Source: a virus
Strand: one strand, 5' to 3'
DNA: 64,000 nt
IMG/VR virus record: IMGVR_UViG_3300017766_002493
Span: 1 to 64,000 of that record
This document shows, piece by piece, positions 43,046 to 58,418 of the stretch. The first letter of the stretch is position 1. Every line of letters starts with the position of its first letter. The notes beneath the pieces are model-generated. The model was not told the DNA's origin. It worked only from the letters and a program-made list of their open reading frames with translations, and searched no databases. A program made the translations under genes and the position numbers.

Positions 43046-45250
43046 TTATCTTATATTTTTAAACATATTTCTTGGAGGCTTACCACCGGAAATAGAATTC
43101 CCCTTCCCCATATGGCGAAAAGGACTGCTCACTAATTTATATAAATTATTCTCTTTTTGCAAAGATTTTGTTTGTATATGTTCAACTCTTTTCTTTAGAC
43201 CCCTATTAGATTGCTGAATCTTTGCAAAAGCAATCAAAGCAGCTAAAGAAACTAATCTATCGACATTGACACCATCATCATAAGCTTCCATCTCTTTCAT
43301 GGCCATAACATCAGGTATCCTTGATATACCATAGGTTCTTTTTACCACTGTTCCATCTTCCTTGGTTTCAACATCAATCTCTTCTTTTAAAAATTCAATA
43401 AGATAACTAAGTAAGTGTGTTTTAAATAAAATACCAGTATTCTTCCAGCCATATTCTTGATAAACATTTCTATTAGCTCCAAGGTCTTTTAGAAACATTA
43501 TTTGATCTTTAGGTACTAGGTATTTTTGTTTATGCTTACTAATCATATATTGAATGAACAAAGATATATTGTTTTCTATGATTGTCCATGCATTATACCA
43601 TTCAATTATTAACTCTAATCTTTCATGGGTTCTATTTATATCGTCAAATCTACCACACCAGGCCGCAACAATTTTATCATGTTCTATAAAAGTTTCTACT
43701 AATTCTCCTTTAATTCTCTTTACTTCTACAGCTCTTTTGTAAACATAGATGGAACAAAGAGATTCTGATGTAGTTGTTTTACCTTCTGATACTGGGTCAA
43801 TTGATGCGTAGTATGTGCCCCATTCAGCATTTTTATCGGGTTTTTCCCAGACAACTATTGCACCTGTTTTATCTTCTGTGTCTTTAGTTATTGGAAACTC
43901 AGATATAGGTATTTTATTTGTAAGCTTATGTTCTATCTTGTTATCTACTAGATTCCTGTGTAACTCTACAAGCTCATATGGAAAATCTTTATCAAGTATT
44001 TTTCTTTTATGAGTGCCTACTAATTCCATTGGAAATATAGAAACTTTTCTATAAGCAAATGCTTCGCTTATATTAATTGGGTGCTGAGATATACGAAGCT
44101 GATATTTTTCTGGAGATAAATCTTTTTTCCAAGTTTTTCTCATAATAGCAATAGCTTCTAAAGCTTCTTCTACTTTAGAATTACCATACTCATCAATGTA
44201 AGGAGGCATAGACCACTGCTCTGGAATAAATAATCCGGTGATTGCTACAGTGCCCTGATCATCTAGTAGATTTGTTTCTACTCCATATATATCATTAGAT
44301 AAAGGTCTAAGTATCATTTCTTTTAAAGGAACACACTGATCTAAATCACCCACAGATCCTGCTGCAATAAATAAACCTGTAGTCATATGACCAGATTGTA
44401 GAGCAGGTCTAAGGAACTCATAAGTCTGATCCATCTTAGGAGCAATACCTGCTTCTTCGTGGAAGAATATGGTACAAGGTCCACCGACACCCGCCGTTGG
44501 ATCTTTCTCAAAAGTTAACATGGACATTACACCTTTTAAACCTTTTAAGAACTTTCTACCTTGAGTGCTCATCTCTTCTATCTGCTGTTGCCAGTTACCT
44601 ATTTTACCAGGATTCATTGGTCGGTACCAAGCCGTATGCTGATTTAAAAAAGATCTATATTCTTCTAGAAATTTCCAAGAACCTTTCTCATTAATATAAT
44701 CTTTTAAGCTGGCGCCCATTTTAAGAATAGGTGTTTCTTCAAACCAAAGAGTATTAATAAGTTTAGCACAGTGAAAATAAGAAGAAGCTATCTGTCTTTT
44801 CTTTAGAATAGCAGCATGCTTATAATTTAACTCAGCTAGTAACTCATATAGAGCCATATGATACTGAGCATCCCTGATAGAAGCAAAGTCAAACTTTTTT
44901 TGCTCTTTATCATTGATTCTTAAAAAGTTAAGGAACATGTAATAGTCTCTAGGTATATACCAAACTTTACCATTGTTTTTATAAATAGCTCCTTTTCTAC
45001 ACTTTGTTTTTTGATCGTCCCAATAGTTTATAAAGTCTCTGCTTTTAAAAGGTGATCCACAATAAAATCCATTTTTATTAAAATTCCTAGCTTGCTGATT
45101 AAACAATAAAGATGTTTCATCAAACTCGTATTTACCAGGTTCTTTAAAACAAGTATGGACAAATTCTCTAAAGTCATCTCTTGTTTCAAAAGATGTTGTT
45201 GTCCAGGTACCGTTTTCCCAAGTAGGAACTTCTATAAAAGGATTACTCAT
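43046..45250 (-). CDS. terL: Terminase large subunit
   Basis: Walker A-like LKKRQIASSY, Walker B IFFHEEAG, nuclease YYASIDPV...IIENN...NVDRLVS. Confidence 0.9.
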   Translation of the reverse strand: MSNPFIEVPTWENGTWTTTSFETRDDFREFVHTCFKEPGKYEFDETSLLFNQQARNFNKNGFYCGSPFKSRDFINYWDDQKTKCRKGAIYKNNGKVWYIPRDYYMFLNFLRINDKEQKKFDFASIRDAQYHMALYELLAELNYKHAAILKKRQIASSYFHCAKLINTLWFEETPILKMGASLKDYINEKGSWKFLEEYRSFLNQHTAWYRPMNPGKIGNWQQQIEEMSTQGRKFLKGLKGVMSMLTFEKDPTAGVGGPCTIFFHEEAGIAPKMDQTYEFLRPALQSGHMTTGLFIAAGSVGDLDQCVPLKEMILRPLSNDIYGVETNLLDDQGTVAITGLFIPEQWSMPPYIDEYGNSKVEEALEAIAIMRKTWKKDLSPEKYQLRISQHPINISEAFAYRKVSIFPMELVGTHKRKILDKDFPYELVELHRNLVDNKIEHKLTNKIPISEFPITKDTEDKTGAIVVWEKPDKNAEWGTYYASIDPVSEGKTTTSESLCSIYVYKRAVEVKRIKGELVETFIEHDKIVAAWCGRFDDINRTHERLELIIEWYNAWTIIENNISLFIQYMISKHKQKYLVPKDQIMFLKDLGANRNVYQEYGWKNTGILFKTHLLSYLIEFLKEEIDVETKEDGTVVKRTYGISRIPDVMAMKEMEAYDDGVNVDRLVSLAALIAFAKIQQSNRGLKKRVEHIQTKSLQKENNLYKLVSSPFRHMGKGNSISGGKPPRNMFKNIR

Positions 45251-54125: not shown

Positions 54126-54866
54126 TTAAGTGTATTGAATATTAGTTACATTATCAGTTGCAAGATAATAAGTAAATATTTCTGTTATTGTTTCACTACC
54201 TATAAGTGTTGTTCCTGTATGTATAACAGTAGATACTCTAAAATCTCCAGTTCCAGGATCTATATAAGTAATAGCTCTATTGTAATCATCTGCACCTTTT
54301 ATTCTTTCTATCTTAGATGTTACATTGTTTTTAACATCTACTAGGGTCAGTTCTGTAGCTAATGTAGATAAAGCAACATCTAGATTAACATTAGTAACAT
54401 CTACATTTGTTGAGTTAGATATATCTACTTTATCATCAGTAAAGTTAAGATTTCTAATATCTAAGTCTGTTGCATCTACAGTTATAGAGTTACCACCATC
54501 TTGGATGTTTACTGCAGAAGCTCCAGCACCATTTAATACCGTTACTCCACTAGGAGATGATATTGGTGTAATATTTCCAGGTGCTGGTGGTGGAGTAATA
54601 GTAGTTTGTAAAGTTTGATTAAACCACATTTCTGCAGCTAATGTTGAAGTAGCTACATCTATAATATCATATCTTACTATGATATCTCCTGTAGAATATC
54701 CTGGACCATTAGCTGTGGCTTGGTATGTAGTAGTTCTTGTTTCATAATCTACTCCTGGTAAAGCAGCAATACCATCATTAATAGAACTTAATAATTGTAG
54801 AGTCCTAAGTTGATAGGGGAAATTGTTACCCTTATTACCTTGATCTTTTGTATTACCTATTGACAT
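54126..54866 (-). CDS. Fibre/structural protein with shared N-terminal anchor
   Basis: MSIGNTKDQGNKGNNFPYQLR start; DGGNSITVD..DLDIRNL motif. Confidence 0.55.
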   Translation of the reverse strand: MSIGNTKDQGNKGNNFPYQLRTLQLLSSINDGIAALPGVDYETRTTTYQATANGPGYSTGDIIVRYDIIDVATSTLAAEMWFNQTLQTTITPPPAPGNITPISSPSGVTVLNGAGASAVNIQDGGNSITVDATDLDIRNLNFTDDKVDISNSTNVDVTNVNLDVALSTLATELTLVDVKNNVTSKIERIKGADDYNRAITYIDPGTGDFRVSTVIHTGTTLIGSETITEIFTYYLATDNVTNIQYT

Positions 54867-54878
54867 AATATATTAAGT

Positions 54879-55133
54879 TTATTGGGGTTGATCTTCTTCT
54901 GTATTGTGTTTTTTATTAATCCATTTGTCTACTGAGGCAATACCAAAACATGCTATAGTTATAACTTCAAATGAATTAAAAATAAACTCATTAACTAGTA
55001 AAGGTTTATTAGCTATACCAGTGCCTATATCTACAATAGCAAAGATAATCATTACTATAAAAGCTATGAAACCAACTACTGCTTTTTCATTGATATTATT
55101 GTTGTCATTAAACATTGTCCAAAACTGTTTCAT
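54879..55133 (-). CDS. Holin-like protein
   Basis: 84 aa, two TM segments, charged C-terminus, downstream of the endolysin. Confidence 0.6.
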   Translation of the reverse strand: MKQFWTMFNDNNNINEKAVVGFIAFIVMIIFAIVDIGTGIANKPLLVNEFIFNSFEVITIACFGIASVDKWINKKHNTEEDQPQ

Positions 55134-55152
55134 TTTATTTCTTTTTTATTTG

Positions 55153-56262
55153 TTATTTTTTATTACCTTCTTGTGTAGCATATTTAATTCCCATAATTGT
55201 TCCTACAATAGAAAAAGCATTTGTCAATAAAACACTAAACATATTGCTCCAAGTTGAGCCAATAATTTGTGTATCCTGCTTTGTCATTATAGCTACCCAA
55301 TACAATGTTGTAGTTACTAATCCAACTCCAACTATAACAGCCAATGCAACTCTAACAATTATTTTTATTAGTTCACTTTGACTCTTTTTCATCATCACAT
55401 CTAAGTCATTTAAAGCTGCATCCTTTTCTATCTCTATTGCATTTTTAAGTTTTTGAGAATTTTCTAACTCTACTGTTAAAGTCTTTGTGAGCTCATCTAT
55501 TTTTTTCTTGTTGTTTACAGACTCAGTAACATTAGTTGCAATCTTAACTACATCAGTAATATTCCCTTTGCTATCTAATACAGGGTTGTAAGATGCTTGT
55601 AAGTAAACAATAGAACCATCCACTTTTTTTCTTTCAAATATTCCATCAAAGTACTTGCCCTTTCTTAAATTTTCCCAAAACTTAATATACTCATCAGATT
55701 TAGAATAATCATAACTAACAAAAATACTGTGATGCTTTCCAACTAATTTATTTTTTTCATTGGCTTTAAAGCCCATTGTTTCTAAAAATATAGAATTAAC
55801 ATCTGTTATAAAGCCTTCAGTATTAAAGCTAATAAGTGCTGTACTTCTGTTAATTGCATCTATTTGTTTCTTGCTATTGACAATTAAACTAATATCAGTA
55901 GCAATCTTCATTATCTTGGTGATCTTATTATCCTCATCAAAAATAGGATTATAAGTTGCTTGAAGATTAATAAGCTTTCCATCTTTTTTTCTTCTTTCAA
56001 ACTCTCCTTGATAATACTTGCCACTTCTTAGTATATCCCAAAACTTTTCATATTCAAGTGATCTTGAGTAATCTTCACACACAAAAATACTATGGTGTTT
56101 ACCAATGATCTCTTGATGATTACCTTTACCATAACCCATTGCTTCTAGAAAGATGTCATTAACCCCTGTTATAATTCCAGTTAGGTCAAAGTATATTATA
56201 GCATTGCTTCTGTTTATTGCTTCAAGCCTGCTTAATAACTCTTCTTTAGATAGGTTTTTCAT
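55153..56262 (-). CDS. Tandem PAS-PAC protein with coiled coil and two C-terminal TM helices
   Basis: Two copies of AINRS.A.I.F...G.I...N.IFL..MG......GKHHSIFV......EY..FW..LR.G.Y..G.FER.K.DG....LQA.YNP..D......KIAT; no signalling output domain. Confidence 0.85.
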   Translation of the reverse strand: MKNLSKEELLSRLEAINRSNAIIYFDLTGIITGVNDIFLEAMGYGKGNHQEIIGKHHSIFVCEDYSRSLEYEKFWDILRSGKYYQGEFERRKKDGKLINLQATYNPIFDEDNKITKIMKIATDISLIVNSKKQIDAINRSTALISFNTEGFITDVNSIFLETMGFKANEKNKLVGKHHSIFVSYDYSKSDEYIKFWENLRKGKYFDGIFERKKVDGSIVYLQASYNPVLDSKGNITDVVKIATNVTESVNNKKKIDELTKTLTVELENSQKLKNAIEIEKDAALNDLDVMMKKSQSELIKIIVRVALAVIVGVGLVTTTLYWVAIMTKQDTQIIGSTWSNMFSVLLTNAFSIVGTIMGIKYATQEGNKK

Positions 56263-56268
56263 TTTTTA

Positions 56269-56814
56269 TTAGAACTCTTTTAAAAGTGTATAAGTAAAAA
56301 ACTTATTTTTTGTAGCTTTTCCTGCAGCTAAAACTTTAGCAAAGTCTGCAGGATTATTTAAAACTTGGCAACCAGCTGACCACTTGTCTATAAGTTTAGA
56401 AGCAAACTTTTCATTAGCTCTATGGATATTTATACCAAACAAACCTCTGTCTATAGCAGCTGTTTCCTCAGCTTTGTCATCAAGGTTTTTATCACGGAAT
56501 ACATCAACAGGTTTAGCTTGACAAAAAGCTTCATATTTACCTTGATGCATACCTATTTGCCAAGTATCTACATACTGATTAGCTTTAAGTAATGCTGCAC
56601 CTTTTGGATTAAGCAAGTTCTTTAACCAGTGTGTACCCGGGTTTGTAGTGCAAGTAAACCATTCTACTTTATCACCTGCTATAACACCAAACAAGTCATC
56701 AAACTGGTTTGGTAAATTAGCTGTAGATCTTATCCCTACAAAGTGAAAGTCAAACCATCTGTAGTTGTGTTTTTGAAATTGAGCTTTAAGCTCTTCTATT
56801 GTGTATTTTTTCAT
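56269..56814 (-). CDS. Putative endolysin with L,D-transpeptidase-like (YkuD-type) catalytic motif
   Basis: GINIHRA...WSAGCQV His/Cys motif; next to membrane proteins. Confidence 0.65.
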   Translation of the reverse strand: MKKYTIEELKAQFQKHNYRWFDFHFVGIRSTANLPNQFDDLFGVIAGDKVEWFTCTTNPGTHWLKNLLNPKGAALLKANQYVDTWQIGMHQGKYEAFCQAKPVDVFRDKNLDDKAEETAAIDRGLFGINIHRANEKFASKLIDKWSAGCQVLNNPADFAKVLAAGKATKNKFFTYTLLKEF

Positions 56815-56825
56815 AGTTTAATATT

Positions 56826-58418
56826 TTATCTACTTACTTCTTCCCAGTCTAATGAAACATATGCTCCTAAAGTTCCTCCTGTAGCATCAATAGCCATTTC
56901 AATAACCAATTCAAAAGCAGTTCCTGTAAAAGTATCTCTTTCTAATTGACTAGCAAATATTGCTTCTTTTAATATATTGATACTTGGAGAACCTTGATTA
57001 GATGAATTTACATATCCTTGTGCTAATATTCTACCACCTGCAGCAGATGTACCTGTAAGGTTATATTCTACAGATGAATCTACTCCTGCTGAAACCCAAG
57101 ACCCTCCTGTTGTTATAGCAGATTGTACAATTCTCCATGCATAATTTTTACCATTACCTAATCCTAATAAAGATACCGCTGTAGTTATAATTATAGCATC
57201 TAATCTAGTAGACTTTAATCTAATAGCTACCATTGGATAATAAGTTCCTGCTACAGCAAAAGTTTTTGGAGTAGTAATAGGTGTACCAACAGCTTGTTGA
57301 GCTCCTCTTAATTCATATCCTCCTTCAGATATTACTGTAGAGCATACTTGTTTTAGTGTGCTAGGATTTGCAGTTACTCCAGTGTTTGTAATCTCATATC
57401 TTAAAGGTAGAGATGCTGTAGTTATATAGGTGGAAGTAATAAGATTAGCATGGTTGAATCTATGACAAAGTATAAATACTCCATCTATTACAAACCCTAA
57501 TCTTACAGTTCCTTCACCTAACCACTCAATATCCATAAATAGAATTTGAGCTTTGGTGATATCAAGTGTTACTCCAGATGGACCTGTTCCATCTAAAGTA
57601 TCTACATTCCAAGAACTTTGATCAACAACAGTTTCTGTAAGAACACCGGTTACTAAACTTCTTTCAACAAAGCTTAAAGTGCTATTATTTAGTTGTAGAT
57701 ATAAACCATTTTCTGTACCAAAGTATCCTGCTCTTTGTCTTAAGTTTGTTTGAGCAGGTGCCATTACAAAAGTATCAAATACTAATAATGACTTACCTGG
57801 TTGATAAGAAAATACTTTATAGGTTTCTCTAAGTACTTCTGATCCACTAGTAGTATCTACATTTAGATTTACTAATCCCTCATTTGCACTAAATACAGCT
57901 GCTCCTCCACTTGCTGTTGATGTAGCCCACAGACCATTGTCTTTGTATCTATGAGAAGAATCAAATAATGTCAACGGTTCAGATACTCTCATTCTACCAA
58001 AAGCATCACTACTCATTGGAGCAGGTGTTACTGCTACATTGACTACTTGATCAGATGGTAATACTACGGGTGTACTAAGAGCAGATGGTTTTTGACCCAA
58101 GGTGTTTATCCTTGAAGTAAAAGTTGCATCAGCTAACCTAGTAGAAAGTAATACATCTAAATTATCTGTTTTACTTTTTATATTACCTAAAGTACTCAAG
58201 ACTAAAGCTTGAGTAGCTTCTTGATTAAGGTTGGGTAATATAAGATTGGTAGTATTTGTATTATCTTTTATATTGGTAAGTAACTCAATAACCTCTGCTA
58301 AAGATAACCCACTTGCTTCACAACATTCCTGTATAGCAGCAAGTAGTTGAAGATTTCTTAATTGATAAGGAAAGTTATTACCTTTATTACCCTGGTCTTT
58401 GGTATTACCTAAACTCAT
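56826..58418 (-). CDS. Structural/fibre protein with shared N-terminal anchor and lectin-like beta-sandwich body
   Basis: MSLGNTKDQGNKGNNFPYQLR start; DAFGRMRVSEP, YQPGKS, EWLG.G.VRLGF motifs of a common phage virion family. Confidence 0.6.
   Translation of the reverse strand: MSLGNTKDQGNKGNNFPYQLRNLQLLAAIQECCEASGLSLAEVIELLTNIKDNTNTTNLILPNLNQEATQALVLSTLGNIKSKTDNLDVLLSTRLADATFTSRINTLGQKPSALSTPVVLPSDQVVNVAVTPAPMSSDAFGRMRVSEPLTLFDSSHRYKDNGLWATSTASGGAAVFSANEGLVNLNVDTTSGSEVLRETYKVFSYQPGKSLLVFDTFVMAPAQTNLRQRAGYFGTENGLYLQLNNSTLSFVERSLVTGVLTETVVDQSSWNVDTLDGTGPSGVTLDITKAQILFMDIEWLGEGTVRLGFVIDGVFILCHRFNHANLITSTYITTASLPLRYEITNTGVTANPSTLKQVCSTVISEGGYELRGAQQAVGTPITTPKTFAVAGTYYPMVAIRLKSTRLDAIIITTAVSLLGLGNGKNYAWRIVQSAITTGGSWVSAGVDSSVEYNLTGTSAAGGRILAQGYVNSSNQGSPSINILKEAIFASQLERDTFTGTAFELVIEMAIDATGGTLGAYVSLDWEEVSR

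Follow-up and report, generated by a model that had tools for sequence, protein, structure and literature searches.

Why would a phage keep a sensory protein between its lysis genes? The question is raised by a locus on the minus strand of the IMG/VR virus record IMGVR_UViG_3300017766_002493, of which we analysed the first 64 kb (hereafter the window) out of 120,123 bp. Three co-oriented genes in the open reading frame (ORF) list of the window encode a 181-amino-acid (aa) lysin candidate, a 369-aa protein with two PAS domains and an 84-aa membrane protein. The gaps between them measure 6 nt (lysin and PAS gene) and 19 nt (PAS gene and 84-aa gene), in agreement with the arrangement given in the original prediction for this locus, which had proposed a holin or antiholin gated by the physiological state of the host. 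From the gene context, we give an even chance to the explanation that the 369-aa protein is a sensor-gated effector of lysis timing. It would be a phage-specific regulator of the lysis cassette, in which a tandem-PAS sensor acts through a helix of fixed length on a near-invariant effector, a hairpin of two transmembrane (TM) helices.

A tandem-PAS protein that ends in a membrane hairpin

The 369-aa protein matches the Pfam family PAS_3 over two stretches (E = 1.7e-23; 83.1 bits against a cut-off of 25.6) and, also above cut-off, PAS_9 (60.2 bits), PAS (50.3 bits) and PAS_4 (33.8 bits); the PAS families tested were PF08447, PF13426, PF00989 and PF08448. The NCBIfam family TIGR00229 (sensory_box) matches at 2.5e-25, and there is no match to any PHROG family. 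Two hydrophobic segments lie in the last 75 residues (about 298–326 and 341–359), bracketed by Lys-rich stretches and ending in a short Lys-rich tail. Because of these brackets and the positive-inside rule, the hairpin is probably inserted with both ends inside (N-in/C-in), which would leave the PAS domains in the cytoplasm. An AlphaFold2 (AF2) model (m7973f94615b4), built from a 38-row alignment, has a mean predicted local distance difference test (pLDDT) score of 87, with both PAS folds above 90. In this model a single unbroken helix (residues 246–326) runs from the second PAS domain, PAS-B, into the membrane and is followed by a five-residue loop and a second helix (residues 332–365). Pfam matches, hydrophobicity and model agree with the order of PAS, PAS, coiled coil and two TM segments that had been read from the sequence, the coiled coil being a candidate.

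The original prediction further held that the output domain of such sensors, a methyl-accepting chemotaxis protein (MCP) or kinase domain, is missing. Pfam bears this out, returning PAS families and two sub-threshold domains of unknown function (DUFs), and no MCP or kinase output. The 124 residues after PAS-B form the helix, the loop and the second helix, with no MCPsignal or HAMP match. We rejected the automatic label 'methyl-accepting chemotaxis protein' that many homologues carry, as there is no MCP signalling domain or HAMP in the protein.

The top structural matches of the PAS model are MmoS, DosP, NifL and FixL, and the nearest solved PAS domains by sequence are those of MmoS, Aer and NifL. 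The first PAS domain, PAS-A, aligns to the PAS-A of MmoS that binds flavin adenine dinucleotide (FAD; 3EWK), and PAS-B aligns to the PAS domain of Aer (8DIK). The flavin-pocket residues are H53, N85 and R115 in Aer and H132, N164 and R195 in MmoS (PMC9668731). Counted by hand on our alignments, the mapped sites of both phage PAS domains keep the His, have Arg at the Asn site and have Ala at the Arg site. The PAS pair is 30–38% identical to those of 29 phage kinases, compared with 27–46% to cellular proteins.

The PAS gene stays beside lysis genes

IMG/VR contains 162 viral stretches that encode a relative of the 369-aa protein, and the linkage and identity figures given here come from the best 80, which are 83–98% identical over the full length. 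ORFs were called at these 80 loci; the three that flank the PAS gene on either side were grouped into clusters, which we identified through Pfam and PHROGs, with each lysin or holin label resting on one representative per cluster. Nine PAS genes were called from an internal ATG by the ORF parser and are of full length by tblastn.

A recognisable lysis gene lies within three ORFs of the PAS gene at 78 of the 80 loci, where endolysins, Phage_holin_4_1, the 84-aa family and spanin-like proteins all count as lysis genes. An endolysin is found within this distance at 69 loci and is the direct neighbour at 56. This association is spread over 59 different local gene orders and five endolysin classes: Phage_lysozyme (GH24), the PHROG-3000 type to which the lysin of the window belongs, GH19, M15 (Peptidase_M15_3) and Amidase_2. 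Relatives of the 84-aa protein are directly adjacent to the PAS gene at 41 loci and, by ORF calling, absent within three ORFs at 33; both the 84-aa gene and the lysin occur on either side of it. Phage_holin_4_1 accounts for three neighbour clusters. Taken together, a member of the 84-aa family or a Pfam holin is present within three ORFs at 56 loci, and others have further small membrane genes. The outer flanks vary and include, by eye, structural, glycosyltransferase-like and ribonucleotide-reductase-like genes. Where the PAS protein is 85–88% identical to that of the window, identity is about 37% for the lysin and 34–55% for the 84-aa protein. Within the cassette, conservation is highest in the PAS gene, and the other parts are freely exchanged.

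Two further observations concern the lysis genes themselves. Lysins of more than one class occur, often next to one another, at 31 of the 80 loci, 29 with two classes and 2 with three; pairs of GH24 with M15 and of GH24 with the PHROG-3000 type are common. At ten loci the second gene upstream of the PAS gene encodes a protein of cluster C13 (158–171 aa; for example L012:1719-2195) with an N-terminal lipobox-like signal and a C-terminal TM segment, which by eye looks like a unimolecular spanin.

A virus-borne family under constraint at the protein level

With the C-terminal 120 residues as the query, 3386 proteins matched at E ≤ 0.01; the best 120 of them all have PAS domains and are 83–94% identical over the C-terminal part. 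Relatives of near-full length number in the thousands. Among the matches listed for clusters at 50% identity, three representatives share the C-terminal part: one of full length (371 aa, 76%) and two that are shorter. The other 147 are longer cellular multi-PAS proteins that match through the PAS region only, at 27–46% identity. In a prokaryotic set with one genome per species (185,579 species) we found five matches, all on contigs of 3–32 kb from metagenome-assembled genomes (MAGs). These five contigs, which carry the hairpin, were binned to Saprospira, Flavobacteriales, Saccharibacteria, Ignavibacteria and Verrucomicrobia. Because they are short and are spread over bins of five different phyla, they look like mis-binned phage contigs. 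Among cultured phages, the PAS protein was matched through the PAS region only, in three unannotated records. Judged by where its sequences occur, the PAS-hairpin family is virus-borne. The original prediction had named mainly chromosomal homologues, or homologues away from lysis genes, as a reason to abandon it; we found instead 162 viral loci against five MAG contigs, and a lysis gene near the PAS gene at 78 of 80 loci.

We measured selection on 54 full-length sequences, using 300 random pairs. The ratio of non-synonymous to synonymous substitution rates (dN/dS) is 0.075 for the whole protein, and by region it is 0.067 in PAS-A, 0.074 in PAS-B, 0.077 in the linker, 0.116 in the first TM helix (TM1) and 0.019 in the loop and second TM helix (TM2). 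Synonymous divergence (dS) among relatives is about 0.9–1.3. The 369-aa protein is under strong purifying selection, and since it recurs across viral loci with a dN/dS of this size, the genes are real rather than chance ORFs. Between residues 46 and 364 there are no insertions or deletions (indels) in 63 distinct sequences.

The constraint is sharpest in the hairpin, where 33 consecutive columns (residues 331–363) are invariant in 49 distinct sequences. Synonymous variation within this stretch is normal, at 2.8–2.95 codons per conserved residue. Because its codons vary as they do elsewhere, it is the protein sequence that is constrained, and not the DNA. On the same grounds we rejected a recombination site, an RNA element or a recent transfer as the cause of the invariance.

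The same hairpin recurs under a kinase and a receiver

One MAG contig (L086) encodes a 226-aa protein that lacks PAS domains and shares the hairpin (61% identity, E = 2e-29). Upstream of its gene lie two histidine kinase genes, the first of the PAS-PAS type, with a gene for a secreted protein between them, and then the gene for a response regulator that by Pfam consists of a receiver only. In the Verrucomicrobia-binned region L086:1548-10136, in which the secreted protein has 245 aa, the hairpin gene is directly followed by two genes that by eye resemble those for the subunits of a T4-type type II topoisomerase. The contig is probably a fragment of a large phage and not bacterial DNA.

This PAS-less form is a large family in its own right. 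A search with it gave 6118 matches, the best 120 of which are all 216–232 aa long and without PAS domains. It occurs at more than 507 viral loci, on contigs of up to 483 kb, and has no match among 50,697 cultured-phage records. In its members a conserved N-terminal domain (about 65 residues) precedes a coiled coil, which leads to the hairpin. The core of TM2 is invariant also in 23 aligned PAS-less relatives, and the two forms can be aligned together. All four indels in the coiled coil of these 23 proteins are exactly seven residues long, which implies that the heptad register is kept between the N-terminal domain and TM1.

In a survey of viral loci found with this form, a parser (ATG starts, motif match) found the hairpin ORF at 64 of 85 loci, and the remaining 21 were left out. 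A receiver-only gene is directly upstream of the hairpin gene at 57 of these 64 loci, and a histidine kinase lies within four ORFs at 53. A GH19 endolysin is directly downstream at 19 of the 64. Downstream of the hairpin there is often an endolysin gene together with a Phage_holin_10 gene, the 55-aa neighbour being Phage_holin_10 by Pfam. At the 61 of these loci that are PAS-less, considered over four ORFs on each side, an endolysin is present at 32 and any recognised lysis gene at 35. We saw no kinase or receiver at the 80 PAS loci, by eye among neighbour clusters of at least two members and in ten representatives taken through Pfam and PHROGs. The position of the PAS-less branch under a kinase and a receiver fits a signal-controlled membrane output, and the PAS protein may, from this comparison, be a one-protein version of the kinase–receiver–hairpin relay.

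Does the hairpin exist by itself? The original prediction had suggested looking for the TM part as a stand-alone holin, and this was not borne out by the short forms inspected. A search for shorter proteins gave 1750 matches. The 18 short forms that we inspected start inside PAS-B, in the linker or at an internal Met-(Met)-Lys-Lys just before TM1, and have the appearance of truncated copies or of genes split in calling; a few forms of 81–82 aa, on contigs of 4.5–24 kb, could be real. The family does not conserve the pair of internal Met residues ahead of TM1, which makes a shared dual-start scheme unlikely. Neither NCBIfam nor the named look-alikes in the Atlas gave a usable match to the hairpin. 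The hairpin is not homologous to the 84-aa family (hhalign probability 0.4%, E = 0.17, over 10 columns). A prediction of a complex between the hairpin and the 84-aa family scored 0.01, compared with a mark of 0.32; its controls were not run, and we count it neither for nor against binding.

The lysin candidate and the 84-aa protein

The 181-aa protein matches PHROG 3000 (no function given) at 3e-35 and PHROG 33083, annotated as endolysin, at 1e-18. It matches no Pfam family, YkuD included; longer relatives have an N-terminal PG_binding_1 domain (8.7e-14). Neither His131, within a GINIH motif, nor Cys149, within SxGC, varies among 25 relatives, and we take this conserved pair to be the YkuD catalytic motif. 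The model of the lysin has a pLDDT of 78 and two low-confidence loops. When aligned, it resembles the YkuD-fold L,D-carboxypeptidases Pgp2, Csd6 and Bd1075 with borderline Z-scores of 8.1–8.2 (root-mean-square deviation 3.1–3.4 Å over 117–120 residues) and many L,D-transpeptidases with Z-scores of 6.4–7.7. Foldseek E-values are weak, at 6.9e-3 or above, and all 75 of the 75 rows with a Z-score of at least 5 came from a Foldseek list topped by the YkuD fold. It is reasonable, short of proof, to regard the protein as a candidate L,D-transpeptidase-like endolysin.

The 84-aa protein has two hydrophobic segments, as predicted, and a charged tail with acidic and basic residues. It matches no Pfam, PHROG or NCBIfam family. 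Mean column identity within its family is 37%, and the clusters of look-alikes in the Atlas are 90–100% viral.

The phage and its likely host

The source genome, a record of 120,123 bp with direct terminal repeats, is rated complete; the GC content of the window is about 32%. The cassette is surrounded by late structural genes that encode the portal, the large terminase, the major head protein and fibre-like proteins. The large terminase (43046–45250) shares about 25% identity with its closest counterparts in cultured phages, namely crAss-like Bacteroides phages, phages of Flavobacterium psychrophilum and an Azobacteroides phage. The phage is a member of a distant crAss-like freshwater lineage, and because these relatives infect Bacteroides, F. 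psychrophilum and Azobacteroides, its host is likely to belong to the Bacteroidota.

In the complete 120-kb genome we found no match to a Response_reg receiver or a HATPase_c kinase, and none to Phage_holin_4_1 or Phage_holin_10. This repertoire fits a direct sensor fusion that works with the 84-aa protein.

Coordinates and transcription signals of the cassette

The three genes and the parts of the PAS protein are placed in Table 1. A terminator scan found no terminator-like sites within the cassette on the minus strand, and a promoter scan found no excess of promoter-like sites (17, compared with 23.9 in shuffled sequences). Freshwater metatranscriptomes contain short contigs, 99–100% identical, over the flanking structural genes (three libraries from three studies) and none over the PAS gene; as these are contigs and DNA carry-over is possible, they show neither expression nor silence. 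One contig (56546–56881, 100% identical) bridges the end of a structural gene for a 530-aa protein and the start of the lysin gene. It is compatible with read-through transcription, with DNA carry-over as the alternative.

Table 1 Features of the lysis cassette in the window
Feature	Position	Strand	Evidence
Endolysin-like gene, 181 aa; candidate YkuD-fold peptidoglycan peptidase	56269..56814	-	ORF; PHROG 3000 and PHROG 33083; structural matches
Gene for the PAS-PAS, signalling helix and 2-TM hairpin protein, 369 aa	55153..56262	-	ORF; Pfam PAS families; AF2 model
PAS-A, residues ~20-125	55888..56205	-	Best stretches of Pfam PAS_3, PAS_9 and PAS at 20-125; PAS fold, pLDDT >90
PAS-B, residues ~141-245	55528..55842	-	Pfam PAS_4 at 142-249; PAS fold in model
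Linker or signalling helix, coiled-coil candidate, residues 246-297, continuous with TM1	55372..55527	-	Model
TM1, residues ~298-326	55285..55371	-	Hydrophobic window, maximum Kyte–Doolittle (KD) value 2.58; helix in model
Short outer loop, TM2 and Lys-rich tail, residues 327-369	55156..55284	-	Residues 331-363 invariant
84-aa 2-TM holin-like gene, charged C-terminal tail	54879..55133	-	ORF; two hydrophobic segments

The cassette is flanked by two virion genes on the same strand, one at 54126–54866 (246 aa) and one at 56826–58418 (530 aa, PHROG-1645 structural). At their N-termini the two proteins are almost identical over about 28 residues; they diverge afterwards, resembling alternative fibre tips on one anchor. 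Relatives often keep the 530-aa gene while the cassette and the downstream gene differ.

A proposed model of signal-gated lysis timing

The hairpin would be the output of the protein because it follows a sensor and a helix of fixed length, because it sits in a lysis cassette and because the same hairpin is found under a phospho-relay that lacks a DNA-binding output. We propose that a cue in the cytoplasm of the infected cell alters the PAS domains, and that the unbroken helix carries the change to both TM segments. For the PAS-less branch, the signal would enter through the receiver-bound N-terminal domain and then follow the helix. The hairpin bundle would switch state and thereby alter the membrane, most probably by opening or closing a small leak and so fixing when the holin fires. 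Holins are known to be triggered by a drop in proton-motive force, as has been established for lambda and T4. Such a leak may lower the proton-motive force, or the hairpin may act on a conserved membrane component of the host; binding to one particular holin would be less likely. The real holin of this phage would most probably be the 84-aa protein, and in relatives it may also be Phage_holin_4_1 or Phage_holin_10. Release of the endolysin would follow the firing of the holin.

The constancy of the hairpin, across loci at which holins and lysins are swapped, makes it probable that the hairpin acts on some general property of the membrane or on a host component that is itself conserved. We regard as possible, on the doubtful side, a broader form of this proposal, in which the hairpin would be, in many uncultured lake phages, a frozen two-helix switch that converts an intracellular signal into the membrane event that fires lysis. 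Such a switch would be modular, driven either by a kinase–receiver relay or by fused PAS domains, and could work with any holin and endolysin because its action would be on membrane energisation or on a conserved component of the host; the fused form would be a single sense-and-lyse protein that reads the metabolic or redox state of the infected cell and picks the time of burst.

Weighing the explanations

Several points weigh against lysis timing as the function of the PAS protein. This functional reading draws wholly on gene neighbourhood, and the 80 loci belong to related, uncultured phages, so that their counts are not independent events; they also come from a simple ORF parser that accepts ATG starts only. 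Two of the 80 PAS loci have no lysis gene within three ORFs, and at 26 of the 61 PAS-less loci no recognised lysis gene lies within four (all eight flanking ORFs were available at 43 of the 61), which means that the hairpin module is not tied to lysis cassettes. Within its last 85 or 125 residues the PAS protein matches no holin family in Pfam or PHROGs at E-values up to 10. A near-frozen hairpin is unusual for a known lysis protein, and its target could be a host component unconnected with lysis. An Aer- or MmoS-type flavin cofactor is unsupported, one of the three mapped pocket residues being kept, and so is an origin of the PAS pair from phage kinases, to which it is no closer than to cellular PAS domains. 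Of the signal-gated holin or antiholin in the original prediction, the viral and lysis-linked setting has held and has gained the kinase–receiver branch; the holin or antiholin identity has fared less well, given the lack of a holin family, the lack of homology to the 84-aa protein and the invariance of the loop and TM2.

Could the PAS-hairpin protein itself be the holin, a sensor-gated hole-former with the 84-aa protein as helper or antiholin? Like holins, it has TM segments and a charged C-terminal tail, in a hairpin with a predicted N-in/C-in topology, and an endolysin as a neighbour; its length is far above that of usual holins. The genome has no Phage_holin_4_1 or Phage_holin_10, and TM2 carries a channel-like stripe of small or polar residues (S343, T347, S351, G354/T355 and G358), a pattern common in channel-forming or channel-lining helices. 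A separate holin is nevertheless usual beside the PAS gene (84-aa family or Pfam holin within three ORFs, 56/80), the PAS-less hairpin gene is often followed by an endolysin and Phage_holin_10, and the hairpin resembles no holin family. Holins normally evolve fast, and near-invariance is atypical of them, as the 37% mean column identity of the 84-aa family illustrates; we consider a holin unlikely. The protein could otherwise be a classic antiholin that blocks the neighbouring 84-aa holin until the PAS domains release it. Both proteins are 2-TM hairpins of the same inferred topology, and the 84-aa family is the direct neighbour, on either side, at 41 of 80 loci. A precedent is the action of T4 RI and RIII on holin T (PMC11413866). 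The 84-aa family is, however, missing within three ORFs at 33 of 80 loci, the same hairpin occurs with Phage_holin_4_1 or Phage_holin_10 instead, and the two hairpins are not homologous (hhalign 0.4%). There is also no sign of co-variation, the 84-aa family being variable and the loop and TM2 unchanging; because these stay invariant while holins and lysins are swapped, a classic co-evolving antiholin is disfavoured, and we think it quite improbable.

A different function altogether is that of a late membrane sensor that acts on the host, by tuning respiration or transport, by superinfection exclusion or by blocking a membrane protein, at a position that would be a hotspot for membrane morons. 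The frozen loop and TM2, kept across phages with contigs of 90 kb to 480 kb, fit a conserved host target; the cassette lies between two virion fibre-like genes in a variable region, and the 26 PAS-less loci without a recognised lysis gene point the same way. Against this, enrichment beside endolysins (78/80 and 35/61) is, by a rough estimate that ignores relatedness, far above the chance level expected if hundreds of genes include one or two for lysis, and the PAS gene stays by lysis genes while the outer flanks and the lysin classes change. We rate such a sensor as rather unlikely, though worth keeping in mind. The PAS protein might also be no more than the degraded remnant of a PAS chemoreceptor or kinase of cellular origin, without a function of its own, as the automatic Joint Genome Institute (JGI) label 'methyl-accepting chemotaxis protein' on many homologues and the 27–46% identity of the PAS pair to long cellular multi-PAS proteins could suggest. 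This is contradicted by the selection analysis (dN/dS 0.075 with saturated synonymous sites), by the fixed length and thousands of near-full-length relatives, and by a C-terminal module that lacks MCPsignal and HAMP and forms a separate virus-borne family. A single recent clone is excluded by a dS of about 0.9, and decay is very improbable indeed. The sensor-gated effector of lysis timing thus remains our preferred explanation.

Implications

Lysis timing sets burst size and phage fitness. If the preferred explanation is true, sensing of the host's state before the burst is common among environmental phages, and bacterial-type signalling has a new output domain, a membrane effector in place of an enzyme or DNA-binding domain. 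The 33 near-absolutely conserved residues, maintained despite saturated synonymous change, are a puzzle in themselves and point to a conserved target. With three small genes, lysis timed by host physiology becomes directly testable, and the cassette could serve laboratory strains as a small lysis module gated by a signal.

Relation to known systems

The original prediction knew of no described system like a PAS-gated lysis protein, and our literature search agrees with it: in a full-text search, judged mostly by abstracts, we found no paper on a PAS or two-component sensor coupled to a membrane protein of a lysis cassette. As a system it therefore appears to be new, with a function suggested by its context.

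To our knowledge, lysis inhibition in T-even phages is the one well-understood example of lysis timing that a phage adjusts to a signal. In T4 it involves holin T and the antiholins RI, which is periplasmic, and RIII, which is cytoplasmic (PMC11413866, PMC8385771). This is the nearest functional precedent, in that a protein of the phage lysis system would take up a signal and shift the firing of the holin. There is no likeness in sequence or architecture, RI senses in the periplasm and binds one holin, and the protein described here joins a PAS pair, predicted to be cytoplasmic, to a hairpin that stays constant whichever holin is present. Dual-start holins and pinholins (lambda S105/S107 and S21 of phage 21) share with it the N-in/C-in 2-TM hairpin, the charged tail and the place in a lysis cassette, and the stripe of small residues in TM2 is reminiscent of pinholin helices. 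Unlike them, the protein of the window has 369 aa, a cytoplasmic extension of 297 residues and no holin kinship.

The sensor Aer of Escherichia coli consists of a PAS domain and a membrane hairpin, followed by HAMP and MCP signalling domains. Its N-terminal cytoplasmic PAS domain (8DIK, PMC9668731), of the same sequence subfamily, and its hairpin with a very short outer loop make it the nearest system in architecture. On that comparison the phage protein differs in ending after the hairpin, in having two PAS domains rather than one and in two of the three mapped flavin-pocket residues.

Two regulatory systems are comparable in concept. In staphylococci, the LytSR two-component system controls the holin/antiholin-like proteins LrgAB and CidAB through transcription, with a DNA-binding regulator. 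This is conceptually the nearest system, as two-component signalling is tied to holin-like proteins and lysis; it differs in being cellular, whereas the receiver of the PAS-less branch has no output domain and the sensor of the window is fused to the membrane protein. VqmA-Phage of vibriophage VP882 is a soluble transcription factor with a PAS sensor and a DNA-binding domain that switches the phage from lysogeny to lysis. It is likewise a phage-encoded PAS sensor, which times host killing by a small-molecule cue, whereas the protein described here is a membrane protein in a lysis cassette, in a window with no visible lysogeny genes.

The closest relative is the uncharacterised kinase–receiver–hairpin module, with which the PAS protein shares the helix and 2-TM hairpin, the invariant core of TM2, a viral setting that is often beside an endolysin and the absence of a DNA-binding output. 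In the window, a tandem PAS pair replaces the N-terminal domain of about 65 residues, in a genome without the kinase and receiver. Linkage to lysis is tighter in the PAS form (78/80, within three ORFs) than in the PAS-less hairpin form (35/61, within four).

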